A stretch of 64,000 nt of DNA. Origin: an uncultured Dehalococcoidales bacterium. GTDB taxonomy: Bacteria; Chloroflexota; Dehalococcoidia; GIF9; UBA5629. Each line of letters begins with the position of its first letter. The first letter of the stretch is position 1. Below, piece after piece: positions 3,994-22,743 of this stretch. Below the pieces are notes generated by a model. The model was not told the origin of the DNA. It saw only the letters and a list, made by a program, of their open reading frames with translations, and ran no database searches. The position numbers and the translations under genes were made by a program. Where the stretch lies: NCBI GenBank assembly GCA_964519615.1, contig CAZFIM010000004.1, positions 10,086 through 74,085 of the forward strand. The letters run 5' to 3'.

Positions 3994-6276
3994 CTATTTT
4001 TTCAATGCGGCCAGTATCCTTTCAGGCGTTATCGGCATATCCTGAATACAGATACCTGTAGCATCATAAATAGCGTTGGCTATTGCGGGAGTGACGGCAA
4101 CCATCGCCCCCTGTGAAACGCCTTTAGCGCCGTACGGTCCTGAAGGAACCGGTTTATCCTCATAGAGAACTATCTCAATCTCCGGCATATCGAGCATAGA
4201 CGGCAATTTATATGTATTGAAATTATTGCTTTCCAGAAAACCCGTTTTGTTATTGATAATATAGTCTTCGGTAAGCGCATACCCTACGCTCTGTGCTATA
4301 GCACCTTGCAATTGTCCTTCCACCGTTGCAGGATTTATGACTTTCCCTGAGTCACTGACATAGAGGATTTTCAAAAGTGACACCTGTCCCGTTTCAATGT
4401 CAACCTCTACTTCGGCAAAGACAGCCGCAATCGGCGGAGGATTCTGTACCGGTGAGAAAGAGCCTTTGCCGGAAATATTTACATGCTCTCCTTCAAAATT
4501 AAAAATTGAAGTCCGTGCAACCTCAGCAATGGACATGCTCTTTGCGGGATCTGTTTTTACACTGACCTGCCCGTTTGCGATATCCAGTTCCTCAGGCTTC
4601 ACACCCAGCTTGATTGCCGCCTGCTGCAAAAGCTGTTCTCTCGCAGCTAATGCCGCCCTCATGACAGCATTGCCTGTCTGATAACACCCGCCGCTGGCAT
4701 GCTGTCCGTGATCGAACATGGTAGTATCAGTATCTCCTGTTACCACATGGACACTTTCATACGGCACACACAGCGTCTCCGCTGCGATCTGTGCCATCGC
4801 CCCCATGAGGTTCTGGCCTATATCAGGTCCCTCTACCATCAGGTTGACGGACCCATCCTCATTGAATTTAATAAAAGCATTTTTGTTCTGAAGATTAAAG
4901 GGTTGTGCGCCGCTCACATCCATCATGATTCCCATGCCTATCCCATACCTTTTCGGTCCTTTATCCTTCTTTTGCGTTCTCTTGGCATCCCATCCAATTT
5001 TTTCTTTGCCCAGCCGGATGCATTCATCAAATGTGCATGTTTCCATGGGAAGCCCGGTTGAACTCGGATCGCCGGCATGCTTGATATTTTTCAGCCGCAA
5101 CTGCGTTGGGTCCATTCCCAGTTTCTGCGCCGCCTCATCGATAATTTGTTCCAGCACATAGGAATTCTCATGATTGCCGTAACCCCGCACACCACCCGTA
5201 GGAGGTACATTGGTATAGACAACAGTGGCTTCCGCGGCAACATTGGGGCAGCGGTAGAGACCGAGGAAGGCCCCCATGCCTACATTTGTAGTTGACGTAT
5301 TATGGGTAAAATAGGCACCACCGTCAACGACTATTTTCTCGGAGATAGCTGTTATCGTCCCATCTTTTTTAAATCCTACTTTGCCGGTGATAAAGTACCT
5401 CTGTCTGGGCTCGGTACCAAACATATCTTCTTCTCTGCTGAAGGCTATTTTGACGGGCCTGCCTGTTTTCATTGCCAGCACCACGCATACCGGCTCTATG
5501 CCGAAGCTGCCGTATTTCCCAAAAGCACCCCCTATATGAGGAGAAATCCAGCGGACCATCCCTTCCGGCATGTCATAAAGCCCGGCTATCATTTTTCTGT
5601 GCAGAAAAGGATGCTGACTGGGAGACCAGACCGTAAGCCTGCCTCCGGCATCAAACGATGCCACACAGGCGCAAGGCTCCATCTGGCAAATATGGTTACG
5701 GGCATTTTTAAACGTCTTCTCCACTATAAGGTCAGCATCCGCAAAACCCTTCTCCACATCTCCCCAGGCTACCGGAAAACCGTACTTTATGGAAATATTA
5801 TTTTCAGCATAGTCATGTATTTTCTCCGCACCCGGCTTCACAGCTTCCAGTGCATCAAAAACAGCCGGCAGCACCTTGTACTCAACTTCGATAAGCCCTA
5901 AAGCTTCTTCGGCAGTGGCAGCATCTACTGCTGCTACCGCCGCTATTTTATCTCCGATATAGCGGGCTTTCTCGCTTAATACATACATATCCTTGAATTC
6001 TATCTCAGGATGCCGCAATATTTGCCCCAGTTTATTGGGATTAAAAAGTTTATGAGGAACATCTTCCCAGGTAATAACCGCTTCTACTCCGGGCAATTTC
6101 TCTGCCTTCGATTTATCGATCTTTACAATGTTAGCGTGAGCGTGCGGACTGGTCAGGACCTTGCCTGTAAGCATCCCGGGCAATTTGATATCTGCTGTAT
6201 AGCGGGCGGCCCCCGAGACTTTGTCATATACCGCCCAGCGGGAAACTCTCTTTCCTACAACCGATAGATCTTGCAT
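3994..6276 (-). CDS. xanthine dehydrogenase-family molybdopterin-binding large subunit (CoxL/XdhB-like)
   Basis: KVSGAARYTADI, SPHAHANI, MEP, GGAFG, RGYG, GPDIGQ, DSGKVINP..VEGQLQG, GAKGVSQ, TPERIL. Confidence 0.93.
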   Translation of the reverse strand: MQDLSVVGKRVSRWAVYDKVSGAARYTADIKLPGMLTGKVLTSPHAHANIVKIDKSKAEKLPGVEAVITWEDVPHKLFNPNKLGQILRHPEIEFKDMYVLSEKARYIGDKIAAVAAVDAATAEEALGLIEVEYKVLPAVFDALEAVKPGAEKIHDYAENNISIKYGFPVAWGDVEKGFADADLIVEKTFKNARNHICQMEPCACVASFDAGGRLTVWSPSQHPFLHRKMIAGLYDMPEGMVRWISPHIGGAFGKYGSFGIEPVCVVLAMKTGRPVKIAFSREEDMFGTEPRQRYFITGKVGFKKDGTITAISEKIVVDGGAYFTHNTSTTNVGMGAFLGLYRCPNVAAEATVVYTNVPPTGGVRGYGNHENSYVLEQIIDEAAQKLGMDPTQLRLKNIKHAGDPSSTGLPMETCTFDECIRLGKEKIGWDAKRTQKKDKGPKRYGIGMGIMMDVSGAQPFNLQNKNAFIKFNEDGSVNLMVEGPDIGQNLMGAMAQIAAETLCVPYESVHVVTGDTDTTMFDHGQHASGGCYQTGNAVMRAALAAREQLLQQAAIKLGVKPEELDIANGQVSVKTDPAKSMSIAEVARTSIFNFEGEHVNISGKGSFSPVQNPPPIAAVFAEVEVDIETGQVSLLKILYVSDSGKVINPATVEGQLQGAIAQSVGYALTEDYIINNKTGFLESNNFNTYKLPSMLDMPEIEIVLYEDKPVPSGPYGAKGVSQGAMVAVTPAIANAIYDATGICIQDMPITPERILAALKK

Positions 6277-6279
6277 CGC

Positions 6280-6777
6280 TTATTTGCCTCCTTTTATCAT
6301 CATCTCAGCCGCAGACATAACCGCATCAATGATCTTCACATATCCGGTACAGCGGCACAGGTTGCCCCCGAGAGCTTCCTTTACTTCCTGTCTGCTGGGA
6401 TTTGGATTTTCATCCAGAAAAGCTTTAGTCGTCAGTATCATTCCGGGCGTACAGAATCCGCACTGTACCGCACCGTGCTCAACGAAAGCTTTCTGGATAG
6501 GATGCAGTTCAGTACCCTTTGACAAGCCTTCTATGGTGAGAATGTCTTTATCACGTACAGCCATAGCGAGGGTTGAACAGGAAAGCACAGGCTTACCACC
6601 AACTAGAACAGTACATGCACCGCATTCACCGGTACCGCAGGCCAGCTTGGTGCCGGTCAGTTCCAACTGATCCCTTAATAACTCCAGAAGGGTGATATTG
6701 GGAGATATAAGGACCTCATGTTGTCGGCCGTTTATTTTGAAATGAGCAATTTCTTTTTTCACTGCATAATCCTCCAT
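6280..6777 (-). CDS. XDH-family 2x[2Fe-2S] small subunit (CoxS-like)
   Basis: GTKLACGTGECGACTV, QCGFCTPG, GNLCRCTGY. Confidence 0.95.
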   Translation of the reverse strand: MEDYAVKKEIAHFKINGRQHEVLISPNITLLELLRDQLELTGTKLACGTGECGACTVLVGGKPVLSCSTLAMAVRDKDILTIEGLSKGTELHPIQKAFVEHGAVQCGFCTPGMILTTKAFLDENPNPSRQEVKEALGGNLCRCTGYVKIIDAVMSAAEMMIKGGK

Positions 6778-6779
6778 AA

Positions 6780-7652
6780 TTAAGCGGTCTTTATTCCCAA
6801 AGCCTGATGTAACGCCCTCATCACCAGAATACGCGTTACTTCTTTCCTGTATTCAGCAGTGGATCTCACGTCGGTGATGGCACGCGTCTGACCGGCAGCC
6901 GCTTCGGCTGCTTTCTCTATAAGCTGAGCATTTGCTTTCTGGTTATCCAGTATAGATTCTGCGCTTCTAGCGCGAAACACTGTGGGTGCCGCTGCACCGA
7001 TTGCTATCCTGGTATTGCTGCAGACACCGTCATTATTCATCACAGATACAGCTACGCTTACCTTGGCAATATCGGCATGCGTTCTAACAAGATTAAGAAA
7101 GGCGGTCCCGGTGTTGGCTTTTGCGGCAGGAAGAGAAACAGCCGTGACCATTTCACCGCGCTGAAGCGAGGTACACTGATAATCAACGAAGAATTTTTCA
7201 ATAAGTTCGTTACGCTGGCTGCCTGTGCCGGCAATAGTTAACTCTGCGTCGAGAGCCATCAGTGCGGTAGCTACATCAGAAGCAGGTGTAGCCACACAAA
7301 TGTTTCCGATAGCCGTGCCCATACACTTGGCTTGATACGAAGTAATTTGATGGATTGCTTTATAGAATGCGGGGTAGTTCTCGCGGATGTGTCCGGACAG
7401 CTCTAATGCGTGAAGTGTGGTCATAGCAGTAAATCTGACTCCGCCGGACCGCTCAACTGTAATTTCATCCAATCCGGGTATTTTCTGGATATTTACCAGA
7501 TAGTCCGCCTTTATAGCTCCCCGCCGCATCCTGGGCAGTAAGTCCACACCACCGGCCAGTATCTGCACTTTATCTCCATACTTAAACAACAATTGAGTTG
7601 CTTCCTGCAGTGTTGCAGGTTCAAAATAATCAAACGGCTTCAATACTTGCAT
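6780..7652 (-). CDS. XDH-family FAD-binding medium subunit (CoxM-like)
   Basis: FDYFEPATL, LAGGVDL, GTAIGNIC...PASD, DVRSTAEYR. No Cys-rich insert of the HcrB type. Confidence 0.93.
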   Translation of the reverse strand: MQVLKPFDYFEPATLQEATQLLFKYGDKVQILAGGVDLLPRMRRGAIKADYLVNIQKIPGLDEITVERSGGVRFTAMTTLHALELSGHIRENYPAFYKAIHQITSYQAKCMGTAIGNICVATPASDVATALMALDAELTIAGTGSQRNELIEKFFVDYQCTSLQRGEMVTAVSLPAAKANTGTAFLNLVRTHADIAKVSVAVSVMNNDGVCSNTRIAIGAAAPTVFRARSAESILDNQKANAQLIEKAAEAAAGQTRAITDVRSTAEYRKEVTRILVMRALHQALGIKTA

Positions 7653-7701: not shown

Positions 7702-7739
7702 AAAAAAAGACTCCGAAAAATACACGATAAGAGTCTTTT
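7702..7739 (-). terminator. probable terminator after livF
   Basis: AAAAGACTC/GAGTCTTTT inverted repeat followed by a U7 run on the minus strand. Confidence 0.55.
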
Positions 7740-8473
7740 CATGATCCGGAAAGGCCGCATTTATCCGATACACCGATATAGACATCAAGTACTTCATCCT
7801 GCTTGGCCAGCTCCTCAGGAGTGGATTCATAAACAACCTTACCTTTATTCACCACATAAACATAATCGGCAACTTCCAGAGCAAGATTAATATTTTGCTC
7901 CACCAGAACTATTGACAAACCCTCCCTATTTAGCTTCTTAATAGTAGTACCAAGTTCCTGTACGATAATTGGAGCAAGACCTTCAGATGGTTCATCCATA
8001 AGAAGTATTTCAGGATTTGTCATTAACGCTCGGCTGATACAAAGCATCTGCTGCTCTCCCCCGCTTAGCAAATTACCTTTGTGTCGTTCTCTTTCTTTTA
8101 GACGCGGGTAAAGTGAATATATTCTATCCAGATTCCATGCACCCTGCTGTTTACTGCCTCGTTCAGCAATAATAATATTTTCTTTAACACTCAGTGATTG
8201 GAATATTCTGCGCCCCTGGGGAACCAACGCAACACCCATAGTGGCAATTCGATTAGGCTCAAGGCCTACCACATCTTCTCCATCTATAAGAATTTTCCCC
8301 TTAGCCGGAGGCGTAAAACCAATGATGGAGTGAATTATTGTTGTTTTGCCCATACCATTGCGGCCCAATATAGCAACTACAGAACCTCTCTTAACCTTCA
8401 GGTCTACGCCCCAGAGGATCTGGCTATCCCCGTAAAACGTCTGGACATTAATCATCTCCAAGATATCAGTCAT
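7739..8473 (-). CDS. livF: branched-chain amino acid-type ABC ATPase
   Basis: GRNGMGKT Walker A, VPQGRRIF, LSGGEQQML, LLMDEPSEGLAP. Confidence 0.92.
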   Translation of the reverse strand: MTDILEMINVQTFYGDSQILWGVDLKVKRGSVVAILGRNGMGKTTIIHSIIGFTPPAKGKILIDGEDVVGLEPNRIATMGVALVPQGRRIFQSLSVKENIIIAERGSKQQGAWNLDRIYSLYPRLKERERHKGNLLSGGEQQMLCISRALMTNPEILLMDEPSEGLAPIIVQELGTTIKKLNREGLSIVLVEQNINLALEVADYVYVVNKGKVVYESTPEELAKQDEVLDVYIGVSDKCGLSGS

Positions 8474-9215
8474 TTTTTAAAGCCCCTAAATATATCTCCC
8501 GTACCTTTTCATTACACTGTATTTGTTCAGGTTTGCCATCAGCAATAATTTGACCGAAATAGAGAACTACTACCCGTCGTGCCAGAGTAAAGACCACATC
8601 CATATCATGGGCGGAAAAAATCACTGTTGTTTCAGCTGCCAATTCCTTTACCATAGAAATGAACGTTTCAATTTCAGCGACCGATAGTCCCACAGTAGGT
8701 TCATCCATCAAAAGCAGTTTAGGCTTTGATGCAAGGGCAAGTATGATTTCTAATCTGCGCTGCTCACCGTAAGAAATGCTCGCGGCTATCTCATCTTTTT
8801 TATCCCACAGGTCAACTTGCTTAAGCAGACGTTCAGCTTCAGAGTTAATGTGATCATAACGAGTGGCACGACGAAACATCTGATATTTCGAGGGACTCAC
8901 TCCCTGCAAACCAAGGGCGATATTATCCAATACGGTGAGATTGAAAAAGAAGCGTGTTATCTGGAAAGACCTCCCCATACCGATATGTATACGCTGATGA
9001 GTTGGCATTCTGGTGATATTCTCCCCAAAAAAGTACAGATTTCCTGCCGTTAACGGAATCTCTCCGCTGATCATATTAAAAAGCGTGGTTTTACCTGCTC
9101 CGTTGGGGCCGATAATTGCCACATACTCTCTTTCTTTGACAGTCAGAGAAAGATCTTTTAGTACCTGAAGCCCGCCGAAGTTTTTATATAATCTGTCTAT
9201 CTTAAGTACGTCCAT
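8466..9215 (-). CDS. livG: branched-chain amino acid-type ABC ATPase (start reassigned to ATG 9215)
   Basis: KNFGGL, GPNGAGKTT, ISYGEQRRLEI, DEPTVG, VREIYLG. The ORF-track extension to 9305 overlaps livM and is not family-like. Confidence 0.9.
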   Translation of the reverse strand: MDVLKIDRLYKNFGGLQVLKDLSLTVKEREYVAIIGPNGAGKTTLFNMISGEIPLTAGNLYFFGENITRMPTHQRIHIGMGRSFQITRFFFNLTVLDNIALGLQGVSPSKYQMFRRATRYDHINSEAERLLKQVDLWDKKDEIAASISYGEQRRLEIILALASKPKLLLMDEPTVGLSVAEIETFISMVKELAAETTVIFSAHDMDVVFTLARRVVVLYFGQIIADGKPEQIQCNEKVREIYLGALKND

Positions 9216-10203
9216 AGTAACGATCTTGAACCTTTTCCCATATTCGAACAAGGCGTATACCCAATCCACCGCGCAGGAGCAGGACAGCCAGTATAAATAC
9301 CGCACCCAGTACTAGAGGCCAGCGATCAGGTATATAGAGACTGGCAATATGCTCCAATAATACTATTACGGCGGCACCAAGTGCTGGACCCCAGAAAACC
9401 TGATCACTACCGAGTATGACCATCAGCAATACCATTGCAGATGTGAGAAGACTGAGAAATCCCGGCCCGACAACTCCACTGTGAAATGTGTATATTGACC
9501 CGGCAACACCTGCAAAAAGGCCACCGAGAATGAAAGCTATATATTTATAGAGCCAGGTATTATAGCCCAGATGCTTCATGCGGCGTTCATCACCATAAAC
9601 TCCCTTGAGCGCACGTCCAAAAGGTGATTTCCCTATTAACGAGAGTAGAACAAAGCATATGATAAACACTACAAATACCAGGTAATAAAAACTCGTTGGC
9701 GTTAATCTCAACCAGGATATACCCATATCCGGATACATAATCCCCGCTATGCCGTTAAAGCCTCCGGTAACATCTTTCCATTTTATACCTACGCTGTACA
9801 TCAATTGACCGATAGCCAGAGTCACCAGAAGAAAATACGTCCCGGATACACGCAGTGCAATAAAACCGAAAACCGCAGCGGCGATAGTAGCAATTGCGAT
9901 ACTGGCAATAATCAACAGCCAGAAGCTTTCTATTTCAAAACGTGTCGTCAGTATTGCTGCAGTATATGCTCCTATACCAAAAAAGGCGGCATGCCCCAGA
10001 GAGAAAAGCCCCGTATAACCGAATAGCAGATTCAAACTCAAGGCAAAGACACCGTATATAAGTATCTTGATTACCATGCTCCTGATATAGGGCGTAACAA
10101 AAGTAGGTAGAATCAGAATAATTACGGCAATGAGAACATACCAACCGTATTGTAAAAGCCATTTAGGCATTTTAGACTTTGTTTCCATGGTAACGCTTTT
10201 CAC
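9202..10203 (-). CDS. livM: branched-chain amino acid-type ABC permease
   Basis: LNLLFGYTGLFSLGHAAFFGIGAY, GGFNG, SPFGRAL, WGPALGA. Confidence 0.92.
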   Translation of the reverse strand: MKSVTMETKSKMPKWLLQYGWYVLIAVIILILPTFVTPYIRSMVIKILIYGVFALSLNLLFGYTGLFSLGHAAFFGIGAYTAAILTTRFEIESFWLLIIASIAIATIAAAVFGFIALRVSGTYFLLVTLAIGQLMYSVGIKWKDVTGGFNGIAGIMYPDMGISWLRLTPTSFYYLVFVVFIICFVLLSLIGKSPFGRALKGVYGDERRMKHLGYNTWLYKYIAFILGGLFAGVAGSIYTFHSGVVGPGFLSLLTSAMVLLMVILGSDQVFWGPALGAAVIVLLEHIASLYIPDRWPLVLGAVFILAVLLLRGGLGIRLVRIWEKVQDRYYGRT

Positions 10204-11054
10204 TGCGTTCTCCCTAAAAGTCCGGATGGCCTGACGATTAGAATGATAATCATTGTGAGATAAACCGTATATAATGCAATATTAGGGAAATACGCTCTCC
10301 CAAATGCGTCAACGACGCCTATCAGTATAGATCCTATCAACGCCCCCTGAATACTTCCCACACCTCCAACAACAATTATTATCATGGCAAAAAGCAGTAT
10401 ATCCAGGCTAATTCCCGGTTGAATGCCAATGACGGGTGTACCCAAATAACCTGCAAGCCCACCCAGAAACGCTCCCATAAAGAAAACGAAGCTGGCATAC
10501 ATGTTATAATTGATCCCCATACCTATTGTCATCTGCTTATCATCCATCCCCGCGCGGATCGTTGCCCCCAGGCGTGTTTTCTCTTGCAAATACCAAAGGC
10601 CGAAAAATATAAGCAATCCGATAAGAACAATAGCAAGACGGTATTGAGGATAACTGGTATCACCTATTTGTACAGCGTTGCTTAGAAGTACAGGCGGTTT
10701 TCCGATCATAGCCATAGGTCCCCAGACCCAAAGAAAAGTATTGGAAAGGATAAAGACTACACCTAATGTCAGAAGTACCTGTTCGTTTATCTGTTTATAG
10801 AGACGCCCAAGAAACAGCCGCTCTAACACGAATCCAACGACACCTACAGCTAATCCTGCAACAAGCGCCGCCAGAGCAAAATTAAAACCATATCCAGCAA
10901 GGCTCAGACCAATATAGGCACCCAGAACATAAAGAGCACCATGCGCCAGATTGAGAATCCCCATAACACCGAAAATCAATGATAAACCACTGGCAATAAT
11001 GAACAATATCATGCCATAAGAAACGCCGTTTAGTAGATTGATTAATGTTTCCAT
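10200..11054 (-). CDS. livH: branched-chain amino acid-type ABC permease
   Basis: GLSLIFGVMGILNLAHG, KTRLGATIRA, GGVGSIQGALIG, RPSGLLG. Confidence 0.92.
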   Translation of the reverse strand: METLINLLNGVSYGMILFIIASGLSLIFGVMGILNLAHGALYVLGAYIGLSLAGYGFNFALAALVAGLAVGVVGFVLERLFLGRLYKQINEQVLLTLGVVFILSNTFLWVWGPMAMIGKPPVLLSNAVQIGDTSYPQYRLAIVLIGLLIFFGLWYLQEKTRLGATIRAGMDDKQMTIGMGINYNMYASFVFFMGAFLGGLAGYLGTPVIGIQPGISLDILLFAMIIIVVGGVGSIQGALIGSILIGVVDAFGRAYFPNIALYTVYLTMIIILIVRPSGLLGRTQ

Positions 11055-11333
11055 ACAAAGGCACCTGTTCAGCTATTGTAAACTACATACGATCACACGC
11101 CAGTATAATAATTAATCCAGCATATCCCGTTATTACTATAGCAATTTAAAGGAAAAATTTGGGATAGATTCAATTTTATGGTGTATAGCTGTTTGTTAAA
11201 TCCTGACTGTTATCTTATATTTCCACTATTTCCACTCCGAAATACAACTGATGGGTTGGTACGCAAAATTATATCGTTATCAATTTCCATAGCGATAAAT
11301 GAACGTATTAACTGAATACTATGCCGCGTTAAC

Positions 11334-11362
11334 ACTATAATCAACTAAGAATACCGTGTCAA
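11334..11362 (-). promoter_or_regulatory. sigma70 promoter of livHMGF
   Basis: Minus strand TTGACA (11357-11362), 17 bp, TATAGT (11334-11339). Confidence 0.7.
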
Positions 11363-11529
11363 TGATTTCTACCGGTATACAGCACATATTTTTTTCTCAA
11401 TTTTGTTGAATAAATTGCCGATTATAAAAGATCTGAATTACATCCTGGCAGGCAACGCCAAACGTACGACTAATATAACACAGTGACGAGAAAAATTCAA
11501 TGTACTACATCAAAAATAAATGGCATTGA

Positions 11530-11558
11530 TTGACATTTAACTTCTAAAATGATAAAAT
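11530..11558 (+). promoter_or_regulatory. sigma70 promoter of the SBP gene
   Basis: TTGACA (11530-11535), 17 bp, TAAAAT (11553-11558), enclosed by a GATTGACA/TGTCAATC inverted repeat. Confidence 0.7.
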
Positions 11559-11902
11559 TGTCAATCCAATTATAAGTATTGTGATAGTTTTTATTAGAAT
11601 ACCTTATCTTAACATACATGGCAGAATATTTATATATATTTACCCCTACTCATCGGCATTATTTGCACCGCTTATATAAAAAACTGTAATGGATGGAAAG
11701 ACTATATTAATCTTATAGTCAACGTTAGTAGTTAAATGTACTGTTCTATCAACCGGTTGGGATAATATCCGGAGTGATAAGGGAGCCAGAGAGTTTACCT
11801 GGAAACACAGCTGTATGAAAAATGACCTCGAGCCAAAATAAGGAGGTGAAATAACAGGATTTCTTAAATCAAAAATAAGGAACATTTTTATTAAAGGAGG
11901 TA

Positions 11903-13099
11903 ATGAAAGTGAAAAGGTCTTCGATTAAAATATTATTATTGACCATATGTCTGGTACTGGTACTGATGGTGGCATTACCGGCTTGTCAAACCTCTTCACA
12001 GGAAGGAAAACCGCTAAAGATAGGTCTTATCCTTGAGTATTCAGGCGCTGCTTCTCCGTGGACCGCTCCGTACACTGAGGAAGCAGTAAGACTTAAGCTG
12101 GATGAGATTGGCTGGGAAGTTGCAGGCAGAAAAATAGAATTAATAACAGAAGACGGGGCAAGCAATGTAGAAGTCGCTATTGAAAAAGCAAAGAAATTGG
12201 TAGAGAATGACCGGGTAGAAGTAATACTCGGTGTACTATTCGGCCCCTCTGTCATAGCTGTCTCCAAATATGCGAGCCAAGTAGGTGTTTGTTTTGGCAC
12301 GTACATCGGACAGTCAATGGATGTTGTAGGCTCTGATCCTAACTACTCGATACTTGCAACGGGCACACTAGCCGGCGGCAACTATGAATTGGGCAAATAT
12401 GCCTATAATGAATTGGGTTACAGAACGGCAACTACTGTCTATCAGGATTTTGTATCTGGGGAGGGATTCATCGGCGGATTCGAAGTGGGATTTAGACAAG
12501 CAGGAGGGGAAATAATCCAGCGGCAGGCAGTCCCACTAGGGACAGTAGATTTCGCTCCATACCTGACAAACCTTGAAGATGCAGACTGTCTGGCCTACTG
12601 GTTAGCTGGCACCATGAACATTTTCCTCGGGCAGTACTACGATTTCAATATAGACATCCCAGTAATCGTACCATCTTCCTGGTGCCTTGACATGGCGCCT
12701 TTAGTAGAGATGGGCGATACTCCGCTGGGCATTCTCGGCTGCGGTCATGCCAATGAGTGGGTGACTGATATACCTCAGAATGCCGATTTCGTGAAGGGTA
12801 TGTATGATAGAGGCTATGAACCCATACAATATTCATATGCTATATACATAGCAACCGCTACATTCTTAGAAGCAGTAGAAAAAACAGGTGGTGATACCAG
12901 CCCTGAAAAGCTGCACGATGCCTGGATCAACGTCAAAATGAATACGCCTGCCGGTCCAGTACGATTTGATGAATATGGATGTGCTATCGGGAACCTGTAC
13001 CTGTACCAATATTCAAAAGATGATAATGGGGAATATTATTGGAAAGTAATAAACACTTTTGAAGATGTACCGATGAAGTGTCCCGAGATTGATTACTAA
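11903..13099 (+). CDS. ABC substrate-binding lipoprotein, Leu/Ile/Val-binding-protein-like fold
   Basis: Signal peptide with LPAC lipobox, LKIGLILEYSG, GRKIELITED, A+++AKKLVEND+V++ILG. AAGGAGG SD. Confidence 0.88.
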   Translation: MKVKRSSIKILLLTICLVLVLMVALPACQTSSQEGKPLKIGLILEYSGAASPWTAPYTEEAVRLKLDEIGWEVAGRKIELITEDGASNVEVAIEKAKKLVENDRVEVILGVLFGPSVIAVSKYASQVGVCFGTYIGQSMDVVGSDPNYSILATGTLAGGNYELGKYAYNELGYRTATTVYQDFVSGEGFIGGFEVGFRQAGGEIIQRQAVPLGTVDFAPYLTNLEDADCLAYWLAGTMNIFLGQYYDFNIDIPVIVPSSWCLDMAPLVEMGDTPLGILGCGHANEWVTDIPQNADFVKGMYDRGYEPIQYSYAIYIATATFLEAVEKTGGDTSPEKLHDAWINVKMNTPAGPVRFDEYGCAIGNLYLYQYSKDDNGEYYWKVINTFEDVPMKCPEIDY

Positions 13100-13138
13100 C
13101 GGCATATTTACGCTGAACATTACACTGCTATATCGTTT

Positions 13139-13175
13139 AAAAAGGACTACCCGGAATCTCGGGTAGTCCTTTTTT
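13139..13175 (+). terminator. intrinsic terminator (probably bidirectional)
   Basis: AAAAAGGACTACCCG-GAATCT-CGGGTAGTCCTTTTTT. Confidence 0.85.
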
Positions 13176-13308
13176 CTTATACCAGTGATTCTAAAATCCC
13201 GGATAGATTTCCGCTCAATGAGCACTATACCTCCCATTCAGCGCGGTAATAAAGTATACTTACTTTATATATAGTGATGAAATGTAAAGCCTCAAGGAAA
13301 GTAACCTT

Positions 13309-14064
13309 ATGTCAGCATACAACGAACTAAACGAGCCTTCCTCGGGGGCAACAGCCAAATTAGTGCTGCCGGATAACAGCACCATCTCCTTACAGTCATC
13401 CGGGCGCTGGATCGGACGCAGTGATTTTACCGGGCAGGTATCGGAAAGCGTCATCCAGCAGATCTCCCGCGAGCATCTGTTTATCACTATGGAAAACGGC
13501 AGTTTCTATTGTGAAGACCGCAGCAGCACTAACGGTACGCGCCTGAACGGGCAGGAAATAAGCGGGACAGGTAGACACGTTTTGAAAGAAGGAGATACAC
13601 TGGTCCTGGGCGATATAATTACTGTACATTTTCAGGGGCCGGTGCGCACTACCGCACCCTCCGGTTACATTCAGACGGCGGCAGTTCCCTATAATGAAGC
13701 GCCTGCCGCACAAGACGTTCACTACAAGGAAAATACCTCCGGCCAGGGGAATCTGGCAATTGTCCCTCCTGAGATCAAGAAATGGCACTGGGGTGCTTTC
13801 TTTCTTAACTGGATATGGGGTATAGGAAACAATGTCTGGATAGCGCTGTTGTGCTTTGTTCCGATGGTCAATATCGTTATGATCTTTATACTCGGTGCCA
13901 GGGGAAACGAATGGGCATGGCGCAATAAAAGGTGGGACAGTATCGAACATTTCAAAAGGGTTCAGCACAAATGGACTGCATGGGGATTAGGACTATTTTT
14001 GGCAGGCATAGCAATCAATATCATATATTTCATTGCCATGGCGTCATGCATGCGCTCTTTTTAA
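13309..14064 (+). CDS. FHA-domain membrane protein
   Basis: FHA motifs IGRS, ISREH, DRSSTNGT; a Pro/Ala linker; then a C-terminal membrane domain KWHWGAFFLNWIWGIGN...GNEWAW. Confidence 0.82.
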   Translation: MSAYNELNEPSSGATAKLVLPDNSTISLQSSGRWIGRSDFTGQVSESVIQQISREHLFITMENGSFYCEDRSSTNGTRLNGQEISGTGRHVLKEGDTLVLGDIITVHFQGPVRTTAPSGYIQTAAVPYNEAPAAQDVHYKENTSGQGNLAIVPPEIKKWHWGAFFLNWIWGIGNNVWIALLCFVPMVNIVMIFILGARGNEWAWRNKRWDSIEHFKRVQHKWTAWGLGLFLAGIAINIIYFIAMASCMRSF

Positions 14065-14079: not shown

Positions 14080-15093
14080 TTATTTGTTTTTCTGCCGGCG
14101 TGACTTAAAATCCGGATTGATTATCCATTCCGGCCAGGTATTATGCACGGTACTTGCCACCGCTTCATATATCCTTTGCTTATATTTAACGGATGATTCT
14201 TCCGAATAATAGGCCGAATGGGCGGTTATGATAACATTATCGAACTTGAGCAGAGGATGATCGGCACCTATTCCGGCAGGCTCTTCTGCCACCACATCAA
14301 GTGCGGCACCGGCAATCAAGCCTTCCGCAAGCGCTGTACATAGGGCACCCTGATCCACAAAAGCTCCGCGGGCAACATTGATAAGATATGCCGTATTTTT
14401 CATTGAGCGGAACTCTCTCATCCCGATCAGCTTCCTTGATTCCGGATTATAGCTGGCCTGAATGGAGATAAAATCACACAGAGGAAGCATATCCTCAAGC
14501 GTTGCCCGTGTTACACCCATGTCCTTAAACACCTCGTCTGCTACCCCGGGATCACAGGCAATAACCTTAAGACCGTAACCCAACGCTTTAGCAGCCACCA
14601 GCCGGCCTATCCTGCCGAAGCCGATCAGCCCCAACGTTCTTCCGCGAATGGGAAATGTAGGCGGAAGTATCACATTACGGAATTCACGCTTCTCAAAGGA
14701 ATTCCATTTATTTTCTCTCACTGCCCTGTCGAGCCGGGTGATCTTGCGTGCGCTGGCAAAGAGCAGGGCCATTGCGTGATCGGAAACCTCTTCCATGCAG
14801 TAGTCACCGGGATAGGAAATACATATACCTTTTTCCGTAGCAGCCTTAATATCTATAGTATCGAAGCCTGTGCCGGCATTAAAGATTAAACGGCATTTAT
14901 CCAGCTTCTCAATCACCCTGCGGCTGAAAGGCTGCATCAGAGTAATAATGGCATCCGCATCGCGCGTGGCTTCAATGAGCTCATCCTCCGTAGTGCATGA
15001 TACAGTCTCAAATTCAACGCCGAGGTCGTTTTTATATGACTCGATTTCCCTCCTGCTCAGAACCCTGGCAGTCATTACAACTTTAGCACTCAT
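14080..15093 (-). CDS. D-2-hydroxyacid dehydrogenase family (CtBP-like)
   Basis: GTGFDTIDI, GLIGFGRIG, INVARG, LDVVAEEP, TAHSAYYS. Confidence 0.9.
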   Translation of the reverse strand: MSAKVVMTARVLSRREIESYKNDLGVEFETVSCTTEDELIEATRDADAIITLMQPFSRRVIEKLDKCRLIFNAGTGFDTIDIKAATEKGICISYPGDYCMEEVSDHAMALLFASARKITRLDRAVRENKWNSFEKREFRNVILPPTFPIRGRTLGLIGFGRIGRLVAAKALGYGLKVIACDPGVADEVFKDMGVTRATLEDMLPLCDFISIQASYNPESRKLIGMREFRSMKNTAYLINVARGAFVDQGALCTALAEGLIAGAALDVVAEEPAGIGADHPLLKFDNVIITAHSAYYSEESSVKYKQRIYEAVASTVHNTWPEWIINPDFKSRRQKNK

Positions 15094-15268: not shown

Positions 15269-16027
15269 TCAACCCACAGCGGTGACGCCGCCGTCGACGT
15301 AGAGGATCTGTCCGGTAATAAAATCAGCCTCATCAGATGCCAGAAAAACACAGGCGCCTTCAACATCAGAAGGAACACCAAGGCGTTTCATGGGGCTCTT
15401 ATCGGCTGCCAGCTTGATGCGCTCCGGAGCTACCTCTCTCTGGATTGTCTCTGTAAGCACCAGTGCCGGGCCGATAGCATTGACGTTAACGCCAAAAGGC
15501 GCCCATTCCGCTGCCATCATGCGGGTGATCATATCGACCGCACCTTTGGTAGCGCCGTAGCCGGTATTGCCGCCTGCGGTTCCGCGCGCGCCGCGAATAG
15601 AGGAAAGATTGATGATTTTACCCTTTTTCTTCTCAACCATCATCTTACCAAAGACTTTACAGGGCAGCATTACACCCTTTACGCTCACAGCGAACATGGC
15701 ATCCCAATTCTTGACATCGATGTCGGTTGCGGCCATTTTAATATTCAATCCCTGTGAATTGACCAGAATATCAACCGTGCCGTATTTTTTCACTACCGCA
15801 TCAGCCAGTTTTTTAACGCTGTCTTCATCAGCAACATCAACCTGCATAGCCGAAACCTCGTTTTTGGTCTCAGACTGAATTTTACTGGCTACCTGCTGCA
15901 ATTTCTCCAGATTGCGGCTGGCGATCACGACCTTTGCACCCTGCTTTGACAGCGCCAGTGCGCAGTGTTCGCCCAAACCACCGGCACCACCGATGACAAC
16001 CGCTATTTTTTTGTCCAGACTAAACAT
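15269..16027 (-). CDS. short-chain dehydrogenase/reductase, probably NADP(H)-dependent
   Basis: VIGGAGGLG, ASR after beta2, DILVNSQG, S..YGATK catalytic motif, ITGQILYVDGG. Confidence 0.9.
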   Translation of the reverse strand: MFSLDKKIAVVIGGAGGLGEHCALALSKQGAKVVIASRNLEKLQQVASKIQSETKNEVSAMQVDVADEDSVKKLADAVVKKYGTVDILVNSQGLNIKMAATDIDVKNWDAMFAVSVKGVMLPCKVFGKMMVEKKKGKIINLSSIRGARGTAGGNTGYGATKGAVDMITRMMAAEWAPFGVNVNAIGPALVLTETIQREVAPERIKLAADKSPMKRLGVPSDVEGACVFLASDEADFITGQILYVDGGVTAVG

Positions 16028-16156: not shown

Positions 16157-17593
16157 TTATTCGTTTATACCTGCCAGCTTTTTAGCCAGTTTTTTCTTGG
16201 ACTCCAGATCCGTATTACGCAAAATAGTCATCTTATGTGTCTCGGGCGACCCTGCGCCGTGAATATTGGAGACGATATCGCGGCTTTCAAAGGCCAGCTT
16301 CTCTATCAACCTGAACATACGAATCCTGTCTTCAGTGGACACATTGTCAGCGCCTTTTAGGTATTTCTTAAGCAACGGCCCTATATCCGGATCTGCGAAG
16401 TCTTTTTCCGAAGGCACATCGGCGACCATGCCGCCCGCGATCTCTATCATATTACGTATGACTTCATGCAGTTCCTTGCCCTCATAAAGTTTAGAGGTGT
16501 TAGAGAGAACGGGGTCAACCGTATAAATACCTGATGGCGTTGGAGTAGCTTCTACTGAAGCGGCAACAGAGCAGCCGTAAATCGCCTGTATAGTCTTTAT
16601 CATTTCCACCAGTTTGGCATTGATATGAGAAACATTTTTCAAGCCGTTGTAATCCGCAGCAACAGCCGCTGCACCGATCAAAACATCGCCCACGCCGCAT
16701 TTGCAGCCGCCGTGCGAATGCCGGTGATAGTTGCCGAAATTACGAACCATCGGCCCTGCGTATTCATATTCACCGCAGAGAAAGACATATTCCCAGGGGA
16801 CAAAGACATCCTGGAAAAGAAGCATGGGGGCGAACTTGCTGTACTCCACATTACCAAGGTCGCAGTTTTCCATCGCCCTGCTCTCCAGCGTTCCTCTGCC
16901 GTATACATGAATTAGACCTTTGGTATCGGTGGGCACGGCAAAACAGACGGCGTAGTCTTTATCGTCCTCACGCATTTCGCGAGCGGGAACAATAAGCGCC
17001 CAGTGCGCACAGAGAGAGCCTGTCTGATGTATCTTGGCACCCCGCACGAAGATACCATCCTTGTTCTTATCAACAACGCGCAGATACATGTCCGGATCTT
17101 TCTGCTGAGACGGCCGGAGAGACCTGTCGCCTTTCACATCAGTCACACCACTGCAGACCACATAATCGTTCCTCTGTACCATTTTAAGGAAGTCAGTCAG
17201 CCTTTTGAAGTATTCCGTATCGTATTTCTTATCGCAATTATATATTTCAATACCTGCGGAATTGATGGCATCCATGCCGGTACAGCGCATAAAGCAGCCG
17301 CCTATACGCTGTGAGAGATATTTGAGCATTCTTACCTTTGCCAGCAAATCCTCCTGGCTCTGGTAGAATTTTACGAATCTGCTCACCTCTTCATTAATCA
17401 GGTCGGATTTTGCCACTAAAAAAGCCCGCCCCTCCTCCGTATTCGCCAGCGCATAAGTCTGCGCAACTGAAGCAACCATATGCTTGATCAGGGGATGTTC
17501 TACCGGATTCTCTACTTTCTTGCCCAAAATATATGCTTGAGGATGAACTTTCTTGAGCGATTCATAATATTGTTCCCTAGTCATTACAGCCAT
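16157..17593 (-). CDS. 4-hydroxybutyryl-CoA dehydratase / vinylacetyl-CoA isomerase family (FAD, [4Fe-4S])
   Basis: GGCFMRCTGMD and HRHSHGGCK match the AbfD cluster ligands; TDVKGDRS, RGAKIHQTG, HGAGSP. Confidence 0.85.
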   Translation of the reverse strand: MAVMTREQYYESLKKVHPQAYILGKKVENPVEHPLIKHMVASVAQTYALANTEEGRAFLVAKSDLINEEVSRFVKFYQSQEDLLAKVRMLKYLSQRIGGCFMRCTGMDAINSAGIEIYNCDKKYDTEYFKRLTDFLKMVQRNDYVVCSGVTDVKGDRSLRPSQQKDPDMYLRVVDKNKDGIFVRGAKIHQTGSLCAHWALIVPAREMREDDKDYAVCFAVPTDTKGLIHVYGRGTLESRAMENCDLGNVEYSKFAPMLLFQDVFVPWEYVFLCGEYEYAGPMVRNFGNYHRHSHGGCKCGVGDVLIGAAAVAADYNGLKNVSHINAKLVEMIKTIQAIYGCSVAASVEATPTPSGIYTVDPVLSNTSKLYEGKELHEVIRNMIEIAGGMVADVPSEKDFADPDIGPLLKKYLKGADNVSTEDRIRMFRLIEKLAFESRDIVSNIHGAGSPETHKMTILRNTDLESKKKLAKKLAGINE

Positions 17594-17723: not shown

Positions 17724-20234
17724 CTACAGATCATCACATTTTGTAATTTCGATCAAACAGGAGTTAGATGCCATTCCTGCGCAGTTCTGAGAAAGTATAC
17801 GAGAAGGAGTCAAAATACTCACACAACCTCCCCTGTCTGTACTGCCCGCCGTACCCACCTGAAGCGGATCATACTTTGCACAACTACCATAACAATGTAC
17901 CACGCCGGGCCTCACTCTCTCCGTTAATTGGGCAATGCCTAATACAGAGCCTCTCTCGTTATAGAGCTTCACAATGTCACTATTTTTGATACCGCGTATT
18001 GCTGCATCTGCCGGGTTAATACGCACTGTCCTATAATCATACCCGCCCTTGTTGATCCTGTTATTGGGGATAGCATCAATCCATTTGTTATGAGTTTCAT
18101 GATGGGTATGATATGACGAACGCGGATGAGGGGAGATGAGCTGAAGAGGATATTGAGCGGTTTGTGTTGACTGGTACCCCTCCCAACTCGGTATATAGCG
18201 CGCCATAGGCGGGCGCTCGGTATCGTCAGGCATATATTTAGTCAGACTCTGTGAAACATACTCTATTTTACCGCTCTCGGTTCCCAGTTCCTTAGCTTTT
18301 CCGGTGCCTGTTTTGGGATTATTGTCAGGGGTATCGCATTCCCTGCCCTCATAATACCACCGCAGCGCCGGTGTGCGCTTGTAATCAGGCGGCAGCGGCA
18401 CAACAAAATAGCCCTTTTCCCTGAATGTTTCCCAGGGAACATAATCCGGCAGCGAAGAGTTGTCAAACGCAACCCTGACCCAATCCTCCATAGTCTTGCC
18501 TTCCGTATACGCATCTTTAAATCCCAGGCGTTCAGCTAATGCGGAGTAAATATCATAGTCTGACTTCGATTCCCCTAAAGGCTCAATACATTTTTTCTGG
18601 TAGACCACCACACGATGGTTCGTTGCGGTACTTTGATCGTGCACATATCCTCCGCATTCACCTGACAGGCTGATGTCAGGCCTTTCGAAGTTGGTGCAGG
18701 CCGGCAGCACGATATCAGCAAATCCGGTGGAGTTATTCCACCAGCAGTCCTGTACCACAAAACATTCAATACCGGGACTCTGCAGCAGATGTACCCACTT
18801 ATTAGTCTCGGTCATACTGCCGATAAAAGAGCTGCCGTGGCGGTAGTACATGCGGCACTCGGAATGGTCTTTTTCCGGATAGGTAAAACGGTGGAACTGG
18901 TTGAGCGAAGAACCCCTCTTTTTTTCGAACATCCAGCTTTTAGGCGGGGTAAGAATAGCATCCGGCATCAGGTTGCGGTAAAGACGCTGCGTTACCGGAT
19001 TGACTATTGTTCCTCGCTGAATGCTCTTTTCCGCATATAGATCTATACCACCGTAGGCATAACCCGGAAAGAAGAAATCGCGGTTGAAAGGTGCGCCGTT
19101 TGCGCTCGACCACAAATTCACACCGGGCTTGCCCATACCCTGCATCGCCAGCAAATATACCATGAGCCTTGCCCATTCGGTGCCGTAAGCCTGGCGGCAG
19201 GCACCGCCTCCCAGACAGAAAGGATCGACCATAGTCCGTTTGGACGCCCATTCACGAGCAAGAGCCGTAATCACGCGGGCTTTAATACCGCAGATATTCT
19301 CTGCCCAACCAGGCGTTTTCTCCACACCGTCGGTCTTACCCATTATATGCTTTTTCCACTCATCGAAGCCCAGCGTACGATTACTAACATATTCTTTGTC
19401 ATAAGTATTCTCTTTCAGCCAAACATAGGCGATCGCCTCCGCCAGCGCTGCATCGGTCCCCGGCCGGGGAGCAAGCCACTTGTAAGCATGAATACAACTG
19501 GTATAGTTGTTATAAGGATCAATAAATATTTGCCGTATACCAAGCTTCCTCATCCACAGCCGCCAGATGGCAGCCTCCTGTCCGCCATATAACCCATGGG
19601 TAGAATCAGGGTCTGAGCTCCAGTGAATAAGCAGATCGGTATTCTGCAGACAATCCTCTAAAAGGTCATAATGCTCAGGCATCCCCAGCCGCCAGTAGAA
19701 TCCGTAGGCATGAGCCGCACCCCAATACCAGCCTTCCCAGCTATCCGGATTGGGATCGATCATGGTGAATCCCAGCATATGAAAAAAACGGAAAAACACG
19801 CTGAAGTGATAGCCCAAAATACCCCAGTTATGGTGTGATGAACGGGTGCCGGTAATAGCCTCCTTGCCGTACTTCTTCTGAATACGTTTCATCTCTCCGG
19901 CCACTATAGCGAGGGCCTCATCCCAGGATATGCGCCGGTAGGAAGCTCTGCCTCTGTTTTCGGGATGGCGTTCCCCGTCAGGATTGAAGTCCCTCCTTAT
20001 CATTGGGTATTTGATACGGTTTTCAGAATAAATACGGCGGCGGTCGGCAATAGTAAACGGGGCAACTGTAGCTTTACGCGGCGGTACAAAACTTTGTCCC
20101 CGTGCTGAGATAGTCCAGGACGGAGCATCCGATTCATCCAAAACAAGCGGACGAATGCGAGTTATTCTACCGTCCTCTACATGCACCAGCACCGGACCGC
20201 CAACCGTACAGTTTGTATATATCTTTTCAGACAC
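17724..20234 (-). CDS. DMSO-reductase-family Mo-bisPGD enzyme, pyrogallol transhydroxylase large subunit (AthL)-like
   Basis: TNCTVGGPVLVHV, APSWTISARG, SSHHNWG, NPDSWEGW, GGGACRQAYGTEWAR, ADIVLPACTNFER, SPHPR, DRGGCVSILTP. GTG start with AAGGAG SD. Confidence 0.88.
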   Translation of the reverse strand: MSEKIYTNCTVGGPVLVHVEDGRITRIRPLVLDESDAPSWTISARGQSFVPPRKATVAPFTIADRRRIYSENRIKYPMIRRDFNPDGERHPENRGRASYRRISWDEALAIVAGEMKRIQKKYGKEAITGTRSSHHNWGILGYHFSVFFRFFHMLGFTMIDPNPDSWEGWYWGAAHAYGFYWRLGMPEHYDLLEDCLQNTDLLIHWSSDPDSTHGLYGGQEAAIWRLWMRKLGIRQIFIDPYNNYTSCIHAYKWLAPRPGTDAALAEAIAYVWLKENTYDKEYVSNRTLGFDEWKKHIMGKTDGVEKTPGWAENICGIKARVITALAREWASKRTMVDPFCLGGGACRQAYGTEWARLMVYLLAMQGMGKPGVNLWSSANGAPFNRDFFFPGYAYGGIDLYAEKSIQRGTIVNPVTQRLYRNLMPDAILTPPKSWMFEKKRGSSLNQFHRFTYPEKDHSECRMYYRHGSSFIGSMTETNKWVHLLQSPGIECFVVQDCWWNNSTGFADIVLPACTNFERPDISLSGECGGYVHDQSTATNHRVVVYQKKCIEPLGESKSDYDIYSALAERLGFKDAYTEGKTMEDWVRVAFDNSSLPDYVPWETFREKGYFVVPLPPDYKRTPALRWYYEGRECDTPDNNPKTGTGKAKELGTESGKIEYVSQSLTKYMPDDTERPPMARYIPSWEGYQSTQTAQYPLQLISPHPRSSYHTHHETHNKWIDAIPNNRINKGGYDYRTVRINPADAAIRGIKNSDIVKLYNERGSVLGIAQLTERVRPGVVHCYGSCAKYDPLQVGTAGSTDRGGCVSILTPSRILSQNCAGMASNSCLIEITKCDDL

Positions 20235-20817
20235 AAAAAGACTCCTTCGCTAACGAAATTTGCAGCATCCTGAAAACCGGTAGCTTAGCAGTGACTTCTT
20301 TTTCAAACTACATCCATCTTCAGCACTCATGAAGGCAGTCCTGCAAGAAATATCCGCAACGGCTCAAACTGAGTGAAAAAACAAAAAGGGCTGCAACAAG
20401 CAAATGCCGCCCTCCTCTATTTTACACTATCAAATGGTAGTACATTCAACTACGCAGGACAAGCACGGTATTCAGAAACAAGACCATTGTGCAATACAAA
20501 CAACCATCCTGCCGTATATAAATTCACCTTTGACGGATAAATAGTCAGAACCCCCACGTTTTTCTATTGCCAAACCTGCTGCAACACACTTGAATATCTG
20601 TATTGCTGACACTTGGTTTGCTAAAGTGAGAATTAAATATACAATCTATTCTTCGTTTTAGCAGCAATACAGTAACGAATATATGAACACAATAATTTTA
20701 ACTTACGAAAGTGGCGATGAATACACATATTTTATCATATTAAACGGTGAGTATCTACAGATCGGAACAAATATACTGTATTATCATTGCTATTTTCTCG
20801 CTTCTATAGTATATTTT

Positions 20818-21741
20818 ATGGATATGATAGATGCCACTGACCGCAAAATTATTCTGGCGCTGCAAAAAAATGGTCGTTTAAGCAATGCTTCTCTTGCCCA
20901 CATTGCCGGAGTCAGCACATCTACAGTGGCTAAGCGCGTTGAACACCTCCTCGAGAGCGATACTATCAGAATCAGGGCAGTACCCAACCCCCGCAAGCTT
21001 GGTTATTACGCCGATGCGTTCATTACAATGGATGTCGACCTGCTTAAGATCGATGAGATATGTGCTCAACTCAAACCTATTTTCAATGTAAACTTCATTC
21101 ATACATGCTTTGGCCGTTTTGACATACTACTTATCGTTTTTTTCCCCACCTGGGAAATTCTGCACAGCTTTGTAAAAGATCGCCTTGCTCACATTGAAGG
21201 TGTACGGCATATAGAAACCTTTTCTTTCAAAGACATCGTTAAGCGCCTGGAAAATATTTTCTCTGAACCAGAGCAAAAGTCGCCTGCAGTACCAAGAGAT
21301 GAGCTGGACTTCCAGCTTATGAACGAGCTGGTTATAGATGGAACAGCTAGTTATAAGAATCTGGCAAGCAAAACCGGCGCCAGTATCCCGACGATTGCCA
21401 GACGCATTACCAATCTGCTCAATAAAGGGGTGATAAAAATTATTGCCCTGCCGAATCCATCCAGAGTTGGCTATATTCACGGTGCGGTTGTCGGTATACG
21501 GGTCCAAACCGGTAAAATTGAAAACATATGCCAGCAGCTTGCGAAAAAAAAGGAAGTACACTTTGTTTTTACCTTGATCAACGGTTTCGATATATTAATA
21601 GGCATCCACAGCAGCACCCCGGAAGAAATGTACTACTTCATCAAGAATTTCCTTGCACACATTGACGGCATCATCGATATTGAGACTTTCATCCGTGCTG
21701 AGATACAGAAACGTTATTACGGATGGATGCTTGAAGACTGA
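20818..21741 (+). CDS. tandem (two-repeat) Lrp/AsnC-family regulator
   Basis: Two wHTH+RAM units (IDATDRKII..GR.S; DELDFQLM..GTASY). Start placed at ATG 20818 (or 20824) because the ORF-track N-terminus is not family-like. Confidence 0.85.
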   Translation: MDMIDATDRKIILALQKNGRLSNASLAHIAGVSTSTVAKRVEHLLESDTIRIRAVPNPRKLGYYADAFITMDVDLLKIDEICAQLKPIFNVNFIHTCFGRFDILLIVFFPTWEILHSFVKDRLAHIEGVRHIETFSFKDIVKRLENIFSEPEQKSPAVPRDELDFQLMNELVIDGTASYKNLASKTGASIPTIARRITNLLNKGVIKIIALPNPSRVGYIHGAVVGIRVQTGKIENICQQLAKKKEVHFVFTLINGFDILIGIHSSTPEEMYYFIKNFLAHIDGIIDIETFIRAEIQKRYYGWMLED

Positions 21742-21795: not shown

Positions 21796-22743
21796 ATGAA
21801 AATTACTATTATCGGATCAGGGAATATCGGCAGTCTTTTGGGTGCCCTTCTTACCGCTGCAGGCGAAGACGTTACACTGGTTGAAATACGGGATGAGGTA
21901 GTTCAGACAATCTGCAAAGAAGGCATACTCATCGAAACTCCGGACGGCACAAAAAGAACTATCCCCGTTAAGATAGTAAAAGATATCAACTCTACAACTG
22001 CTCCCGACCTGCTGATAATAGTAGTGAAGGGGTATTCCACGCGCAGTGCGATAGAAAGCGCGCTTGGGGTTATCGGACCGGAGACCTACATCCTCTCGGT
22101 TCAGAACGGGGCCGGCAATATCGAAACCATCGCAGAAGTGATCAAAGACGATACCCATGTGATGGGCGGTGTTTTTTACTGCAATGTTACCCCTCTGGCC
22201 GTCAATCATTTACTCTGGATCACCGGTACCGGAGGCATCAAGTTAGGTCCAATGAACGGTGTGATGAGTCCAATGGTGGAAAAGGCTACACAGGCATTTT
22301 GCAGAGCAGGCATCGATGCACAAATATATGTCAAAGTTCAGGACGCAATTTGGAATAAGGTGTTACAGAATGCACCTCTCAGCTTGACCTCCGTACTGCG
22401 TATAACCAATGATGAGATCCTGAATCACCCCTCTACAAGGACACTAATGTATAAAATCGCTGAGGAACAGATCGCAGTCTGCCGGGCTAAAAAAATCAAC
22501 CTCGTTAACCCCGATGACCCCATACAGGCACTGCTTTCAACTCTGAAAATGTTTAAAGAGTCCGGTAAAAAGCCGAAATCATCCATGCTTCAGGATGTGG
22601 AGGCAGGCCACAGGACCGAGATAGAGACGATCACCGGCAGCGTGGTAGCCGAGGGAAAAAGGTTGAATGTTCCCACCCCCGTCAACGAGACTCTTATGCT
22701 TTTGGTAAAGGCAATAGAAGAGAAGACCTTCAATATAAGTTGA
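21796..22743 (+). CDS. ketopantoate reductase family (PanE/ApbA)
   Basis: MKITIIGSGNIG, VKGY, SVQNG, WNKV..N, SSMLQDV..G..TEI. GGAG SD. Confidence 0.88.
   Translation: MKITIIGSGNIGSLLGALLTAAGEDVTLVEIRDEVVQTICKEGILIETPDGTKRTIPVKIVKDINSTTAPDLLIIVVKGYSTRSAIESALGVIGPETYILSVQNGAGNIETIAEVIKDDTHVMGGVFYCNVTPLAVNHLLWITGTGGIKLGPMNGVMSPMVEKATQAFCRAGIDAQIYVKVQDAIWNKVLQNAPLSLTSVLRITNDEILNHPSTRTLMYKIAEEQIAVCRAKKINLVNPDDPIQALLSTLKMFKESGKKPKSSMLQDVEAGHRTEIETITGSVVAEGKRLNVPTPVNETLMLLVKAIEEKTFNIS

Follow-up and report, generated by a model that had tools for sequence, protein, structure and literature searches.

Pyrogallol-phloroglucinol transhydroxylase from Pelobacter acidigallici (AthL/BthL, also named PgtL/PgtS; EC 1.97.1.2; PDB 4v4c, 4v4d and 4v4e) shares its family, to our knowledge, with just one other characterised enzyme, and we know of no explanation for the role of its iron-sulfur (Fe-S) subunit in a redox-neutral reaction. 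BthL (PgtS), the small subunit, with three [4Fe-4S] clusters and a C-terminal beta-barrel, has a single CxxCxxCxxxC motif. Resorcinol hydroxylase from Azoarcus anaerobius (RhL/RhS) likewise acts on a phenol under anoxic conditions, in a redox-coupled hydroxylation with water and an electron acceptor, and the DorA, TorA, BisC and MtsZ enzymes are monomers that need no beta subunit. In Chloroflexi genomes, the annotation of a gene as "pyrogallol hydroxytransferase" commonly serves as a marker of anaerobic polyphenol degradation (PMC3971608; PMC4959651), and a family treatment of such genes places them in the Ser-coordinated RhL/PgtL branch of the dimethyl sulfoxide (DMSO) reductase superfamily (PMC10100899). 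Here we describe a gene of this branch, positions 17724-20234 on the minus strand (window alpha), in a 64,000-nucleotide stretch of contig CAZFIM010000004.1 from an uncultured Dehalococcoidales bacterium (the window); in contrast to the two-subunit RhL/RhS, it has no linked gene for an Fe-S (beta) subunit. On balance we lean towards the reading that it encodes a functional cytoplasmic AthL/RhL-family enzyme that acts on a polyphenol other than pyrogallol and feeds a downstream gene cluster, whether alone or with a borrowed beta subunit.

The initial annotation, made from the sequence alone, had called the gene product an AthL-type large subunit, and comparison with known structures bears this out. 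The top PDB sequence match by a wide margin is 4v4c_A, the large subunit of the P. acidigallici enzyme (phmmer E 3.9e-258, residues 6-834 against 7-868; 46% identity to AthL by blastp), and an AlphaFold2 model computed from 70 homologues (mean predicted local distance difference test score, pLDDT, 85.7; predicted template modelling score, pTM, 0.88) superposes on 4v4c_A over its full length with a TM-score (TMq) of 0.96. The next structural matches are DMSO and trimethylamine N-oxide reductases of the DorA/TorA type (TMq 0.79-0.82); DorA, TorA, BisC and MtsZ share with window alpha the Ser ligand to molybdenum and a catalytic subunit free of Fe-S clusters, but differ in identity (~26%), in scores far under the family cut-offs and in substrate chemistry. 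The open reading frame (ORF) encodes an 836-residue molybdenum bis(pyranopterin guanine dinucleotide) (Mo-bisPGD) catalytic (alpha) subunit and opens with a GTG codon preceded by GAAGGAG; only five in-frame codons separate this GTG from an upstream stop, and the N-terminus VSEKIYTNCT corresponds to the start MxEKVFTNCT of the homologues. Pfam recognises PF21423 (AhtL-like_1st; E 9e-25, 86 bits against a cut-off of 27), PF00384 and PF01568, giving an AhtL-like N-terminal, a molybdopterin and a dinucleotide-binding domain, as expected of a MopB fold. The AhtL-like domain begins at residue 13, which leaves no space for a signal peptide, and residues 1-70 contain a single cysteine and no N-terminal FS0 cysteine motif; the absence of a twin-arginine translocation signal and of an N-terminal Fe-S motif had been noted correctly, but it does not set the protein apart, as AthL itself has neither. 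We conclude that window alpha is, as predicted from its sequence and model, a cytoplasmic member of the Ser-coordinated Mo-bisPGD AthL(PgtL)/RhL family. It resembles AthL in fold, in the AhtL-like N-terminal domain, in cytoplasmic location and in the lack of an FS0 cluster, and departs from it in being 39 residues shorter, without the AthL loops at ~98-105 and 411-441. The ORF is intact and evidently under strong purifying selection (nonsynonymous divergence 0.10 and saturated synonymous divergence against its closest relative, L001). Its sequence was recovered in anaerobic-digester, wastewater and bioreactor metagenomes, and the exact protein sequence had no entry in the protein-to-contig look-up.

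We compared window alpha with homologue loci, which carry labels such as L001. The AthL-like family is large, comprising over 3590 protein clusters at E<=1e-20, and at least 598 stretches matched among the GTDB species representatives, with 581 confirmed relatives, mostly in metagenome-assembled genomes (MAGs) of Dehalococcoidia, Desulfobacterota and Actinomycetota. Trees of 100 and 54 alpha sequences (FastTree and IQ-TREE), which included AthL and left out Azoarcus RhL, contained an outgroup of paralogues at 35-42% identity, most of them with a linked beta; an AthL clade whose four sequences all have a linked beta and in which AthL groups with L050_2, L030_4439 and L081_5844 at 100% support; and a clade of ~83 sequences (97-98% support), sister to the AthL clade, that holds window alpha. 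Inside this sister clade, window alpha and its counterparts at L001-L005 and L083-L088 form a Dehalococcoidia-type subclade of 12 loci from uncultured Chloroflexi (100% support with both programs; 69-85% identity), and a second subclade comprises 26 Dehalococcoidia sequences, none of which has an adjacent bthL (at least 900 nt downstream were checked in 16, and the contig ends too soon in 10). Most of the remaining subclades are beta-linked. For 44 alphas in the clade of 87, a BthL homologue, its identity confirmed against 4v4c_B (E 1.6e-52), begins within ~25 nt of the alpha stop codon, as in the cultured Neomoorella sulfitireducens SLA38 (L050; alpha 10001-12514, beta 12518-13348), which belongs to the same clade as window alpha. 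We know of no characterised enzyme among these beta-linked homologues; at 56-62% identity they match window alpha in length, catalytic residues and a short loop after the PGYA motif, and differ from it in the adjoining bthL and in the pocket positions described below. We conclude that some clades of the AthL-like family have a linked beta gene and others do not, and that most "pyrogallol hydroxytransferase" genes, window alpha included, are not AthL orthologues. Because bthL lies directly downstream of alpha in the surrounding clades, the linked beta is ancestral and its absence derived. A topology that joins the two beta-less subclades was not rejected by an approximately unbiased test (p 0.258), so beta may have been lost once or several times, and there is also scattered recent loss, L032_10001 having no beta and its close sister L017_9998 having one.

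The second beta-less subclade has a fixed neighbourhood (L019, L023, L028, L042 and L045; for example L023:8427-13184), with a haloacid dehalogenase (HAD)-type hydrolase, recognised by sequence motifs, and a divergent exonuclease III-like gene upstream of alpha. Directly downstream of alpha, in at least five loci, lies a nitroreductase-like ORF of ~180-190 residues (Pfam-confirmed for L023 only), which might act as a ring reductase or stand in as redox partner.

The initial annotation had stated that neither neighbour of window alpha encodes the beta subunit; its name for that subunit, AthM, was wrong, the subunit being BthL/PgtS, but the absence holds well beyond the neighbours. A blastp search with BthL (4v4c_B residues 5-259) against every ORF in six frames, in the window and at all fetched loci, found no BthL homologue anywhere in the 64 kb, and none adjoining alpha at any of the 12 loci of the window's subclade; in total, 60 beta homologues were identified. 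The only weak match in the window is a 167-residue Fer4_11 protein (49256-49759; 24% identity, E 7e-4), which lies beside an aldehyde:ferredoxin oxidoreductase and is not a BthL orthologue. This oxidoreductase and its Fer4_11 subunit (47238-49759) are followed by tripartite ATP-independent periplasmic (TRAP) transporter genes, DctP, a 189-residue ORF and DctM, the whole occupying 44122-49759 on the minus strand. At L003 (3607-6541, minus strand), a DmsB-like Fer4_11 protein 33% identical to BthL stands convergent with the subclade alpha; it is paired with a separate 749-residue molybdopterin oxidoreductase and is not the partner of the AthL-like gene.

Window alpha may act by itself, or it may use a BthL-type subunit supplied by an alpha/beta operon at another place in the genome; we judge the odds to be about even. 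Independence is favoured by the absence of beta across 12 otherwise unrelated neighbourhoods, by the close linkage of beta to alpha in the loci that have it, by the low identity of paralogous betas to one another (only ~50%) and by kinship to the monomeric DorA, TorA and BisC. The two beta-less subclades, that of the window and the larger nitroreductase-adjoining clade of Dehalococcoidia, may be single-subunit, Fe-S-free phenol transhydroxylases, a prospect that we place not far short of even; in the literature we found no account of a beta-less transhydroxylase.

The strongest alternative is that window alpha belongs to an obligate heterodimer whose beta is supplied from elsewhere in the genome, for example shared among alpha paralogues, and which may catalyse a redox-coupled hydroxylation or dehydroxylation like that of resorcinol hydroxylase. 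This would fit tandem arrays that are richer in alphas than in betas, with four AthL-like paralogues to one BthL gene at L032 (627-12514) and four to three at L064 (3720-16921); in these arrays some pairs are ordered beta-alpha instead of alpha-beta. It would also fit the occurrence of alpha-only and alpha/beta loci in the same MAG, as in DAOUEB01 (L018 and L055) and CAZCOB01 (L036 and L064), the presence of bthL directly downstream of many of the 56-62%-identical homologues, and the very recent loss at L032_10001, which still lies near the beta-linked L017_9998 (branches of 0.08-0.10 changes per column). As a proxy for the subunit interface, we took the 288 alignment columns with a conservation of 90% or more among beta-linked alphas and compared their retention by clade. 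The window's subclade keeps 263 of the 288 on average (0.914) and the second beta-less subclade 95.7%, against 91.1-94.4% in beta-linked subclades of similar divergence; by this measure there was no sign of a decayed conserved surface in the beta-less clades, as a retained partner would have it, but the test has little power if interface residues lie outside the conserved columns. Obligate subunits, moreover, are normally co-encoded, as the tight coupling in the 44 homologues with bthL illustrates; betas that are only half identical make cross-pairing no given, and all 12 members of the subclade lack a linked beta in neighbourhoods otherwise unrelated. We regard an obligate heterodimer as plausible but less likely than not.

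In either case the catalytic centre is preserved. Motif positions were checked at the nucleotide level and by alignment to AthL, all on the minus strand: SSHH (residues 132-135; 19830-19841) matches AthL S142-H145, with His134 at the position of His144; PDSWEG (residues 163-168; 19731-19748) supplies Asp164 and Ser165 for Asp174 and the Mo ligand Ser175; and FPGY (residues 389-392; 19059-19070) supplies Tyr392 for Tyr404. These three motifs are present and aligned as the initial annotation had claimed, and Tyr530 falls on AthL Tyr560, so that the active-site residues align with those of AthL. The equivalents of the Mo ligand Ser175, in the N-P-D-S-W-E-G motif, and of the catalytic residues His144, Asp174, Tyr404 and Tyr560, the His, Asp and Tyr forming a proton relay, are conserved in 87 of the 87 sequences compared. 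The loop that follows PGYA.GG is indeed shorter than in AthL, by ~17-19 residues, as had been suspected, but this is not a peculiarity of window alpha, since all 83 rows of the sister clade, beta-linked or not, have it.

The clades diverge at two positions, 153 and 354 in AthL, which presumably line the substrate and cosubstrate site. AthL has Arg at 153 and other members of its clade Trp or Tyr; the beta-linked consensus is Lys (Lys or Arg in the individual homologues), the second beta-less clade has Arg, and the window's subclade has His (His143 in GYHFS, 19800-19814; six of six members aligned). At the 354 site, Trp in AthL is replaced by Phe, His or other residues elsewhere in its clade and by Glu both in the beta-linked consensus (Gly-Glu-Gly-Gly) and in the second beta-less clade, whereas the window's subclade has a two-residue deletion opposite Gly-Trp354-Gly355 (CLGGGACR, 19194-19217), present in five of the six members aligned; the AlphaFold2 model has low pLDDT at residues 342-349. 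Both positions thus vary inside the AthL clade too. The window's subclade alters 13 otherwise conserved columns; beyond positions 153 and 354, its private changes include G349F, G465F, F468K, loss of E474, Y514L and E553M; the sole change common to both beta-less clades is at the Gly355 site, beside Trp354. We conclude that the window's subclade appears to carry a remodelled substrate pocket of its own. Because positions 153 and 354 and the private columns differ by clade, it is unlikely that window alpha is pyrogallol-specific, and it probably acts on a different phenol.

Window alpha heads a run of four genes on the minus strand. An AbfD-like gene of the 4-hydroxybutyryl-CoA dehydratase/vinylacetyl-CoA isomerase family follows 130 nt downstream (16157-17593; E 2e-135 to 1u8v), and its stretches CFMRC and HRHSHGGC, presumably those that carry the cluster ligands (Cys, His, Cys), align with 1u8v. 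Next come a classical short-chain dehydrogenase/reductase (SDR; 15269-16027), whose best matches are gluconate 5-dehydrogenase and FabG types, and a member of the D-2-hydroxyacid dehydrogenase family (14080-15093), which is syntenic in L001. Divergent from alpha on the plus strand is a tandem Lrp/AsnC regulator (20683-21741), after which lies a PanE/ApbA-type reductase (21796-22743). Neither NCBIfam nor PDB searches assigned a specific function to the SDR, the 2-hydroxyacid dehydrogenase or the PanE-like gene, and a promoter and terminator scan of the cluster returned counts at the level of shuffled sequence. L001, at 85% identity, has the four genes in the same order, accompanied by the regulator and the reductase, and a TRAP transporter immediately upstream of alpha.

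Other members of the subclade have different company. At L086 (1165-10176; 76% identity) a gallate/protocatechuate-type decarboxylase set, UbiX/LpdD/UbiD, precedes alpha at a distance of ~1.6 kb, or two genes, and Amidohydro_2 genes of the hydroxybenzoate-decarboxylase family stand beside the alphas of L002 and L084. TRAP, major facilitator superfamily (MFS) or CitMHS transporters adjoin other subclade alphas, and two xanthine dehydrogenase (XDH)-type large subunits are encoded directly upstream of the AthL-like gene of L085. Such decarboxylases, transporters and XDH-type enzymes form a pattern that suggests anaerobic catabolism of hydroxylated aromatic acids. Also at L086, a "predicted metal-binding" DUF2284 gene (226 residues, eight cysteines) overlaps the stop codon of alpha by 16 nt; this partner is absent from all other fetched loci.

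The initial annotation had raised a new hydroxyl-transfer specificity, and this is now supported, because window alpha lies outside the AthL clade, has a pocket signature of its own and sits in a neighbourhood other than that of the phloroglucinol pathway. In the reading that we favour, the molybdenum of window alpha would bind the phenolate oxygen of a polyphenol, and a ring hydroxyl would be transferred or exchanged, the reaction being a transhydroxylation or a related hydroxylation or dehydroxylation. Instead of pyrogallol the enzyme would use another compound, which probably stems from an aromatic carboxylic acid taken up by the cell; the product would pass to the AbfD-like dehydratase, the SDR and the 2-hydroxyacid dehydrogenase, and the divergent double-Lrp regulator would control the step. 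Because no electron wire is co-encoded, the simplest chemistry is a hydroxyl transfer that is redox-neutral overall.

Several points weigh against this reading. The roles given to positions 153 and 354 are presumptive. Known phloroglucinol-pathway enzymes are absent from the window's cluster, and the AbfD-like gene is unaccompanied by a CoA ligase or transferase. The neighbourhoods vary within the subclade, so the four-gene cluster may be lineage-specific, and with intergenic gaps of 129-175 nt the tie between alpha and the downstream genes could be loose. Transcript evidence counts in favour but is weak: short contigs from four sludge metatranscriptomes, most of them 99-100% identical to the window, span all four cluster genes, at low depth and unstranded, with DNA carry-over possible.

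The cluster could also be read more conventionally, with window alpha as a plain pyrogallol-phloroglucinol transhydroxylase orthologue and the SDR two genes downstream as a phloroglucinol reductase. The catalytic residues are conserved as this would have it, and the gallate-decarboxylase-type UbiD/UbiX/LpdD set near the L086 alpha would yield pyrogallol. Yet window alpha falls outside the AthL clade, it has His for Arg153 and lacks Trp354, genes for dihydrophloroglucinol cyclohydrolase and triacetate lyase are absent from the cluster, and the SDR fits no specific family, all of which makes such an orthologue very improbable. Although the partner gene is absent and DorA, TorA and BisC are the nearest relatives after AthL, a decaying or functionless paralogue, or a reversion to a BisC/DorA-like S- or N-oxide reductase, is scarcely credible for an intact ORF under strong purifying selection in a conserved 12-member clade that keeps the AthL-specific N-terminal domain and the catalytic His, Asp and Tyr and scores 363 against a bisC_fam (TIGR00509) cut-off of 1017 and 275 against a TorA cut-off of 909.

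New here are the division of the family by linkage to beta and the finding that beta-less clades have pocket signatures of their own and lie beside aromatic-acid decarboxylases and transporters. A beta-less member active alone would give a direct handle on the role of beta; were the single-subunit reading true, the three-cluster BthL would be dispensable for Mo-catalysed hydroxyl transfer and the question of its role would be settled. Such an enzyme would also be reduced to the minimum and easier to express, a simpler catalyst for O2-independent phenol hydroxyl chemistry, and might be a main tool of uncultured Chloroflexi against polyphenols in anoxic sediments and digesters. If instead beta is borrowed in trans, one Fe-S subunit would serve a set of catalytic paralogues.

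Elsewhere in the window, a three-subunit molybdoenzyme of the xanthine dehydrogenase family, with flavin adenine dinucleotide (FAD), 2Fe-2S and molybdenum cofactor (MoCo) subunits, is encoded at 3994-7652 on the minus strand, adjoined by a Liv-type ABC importer (7739-13099). On the plus strand lie a KatG-type catalase-peroxidase with two peroxidase domains (52435-54741), in a genome that otherwise looks strictly anaerobic, and a DUF362 protein with a fused C-terminal 2x[4Fe-4S] ferredoxin domain (42912-44090).

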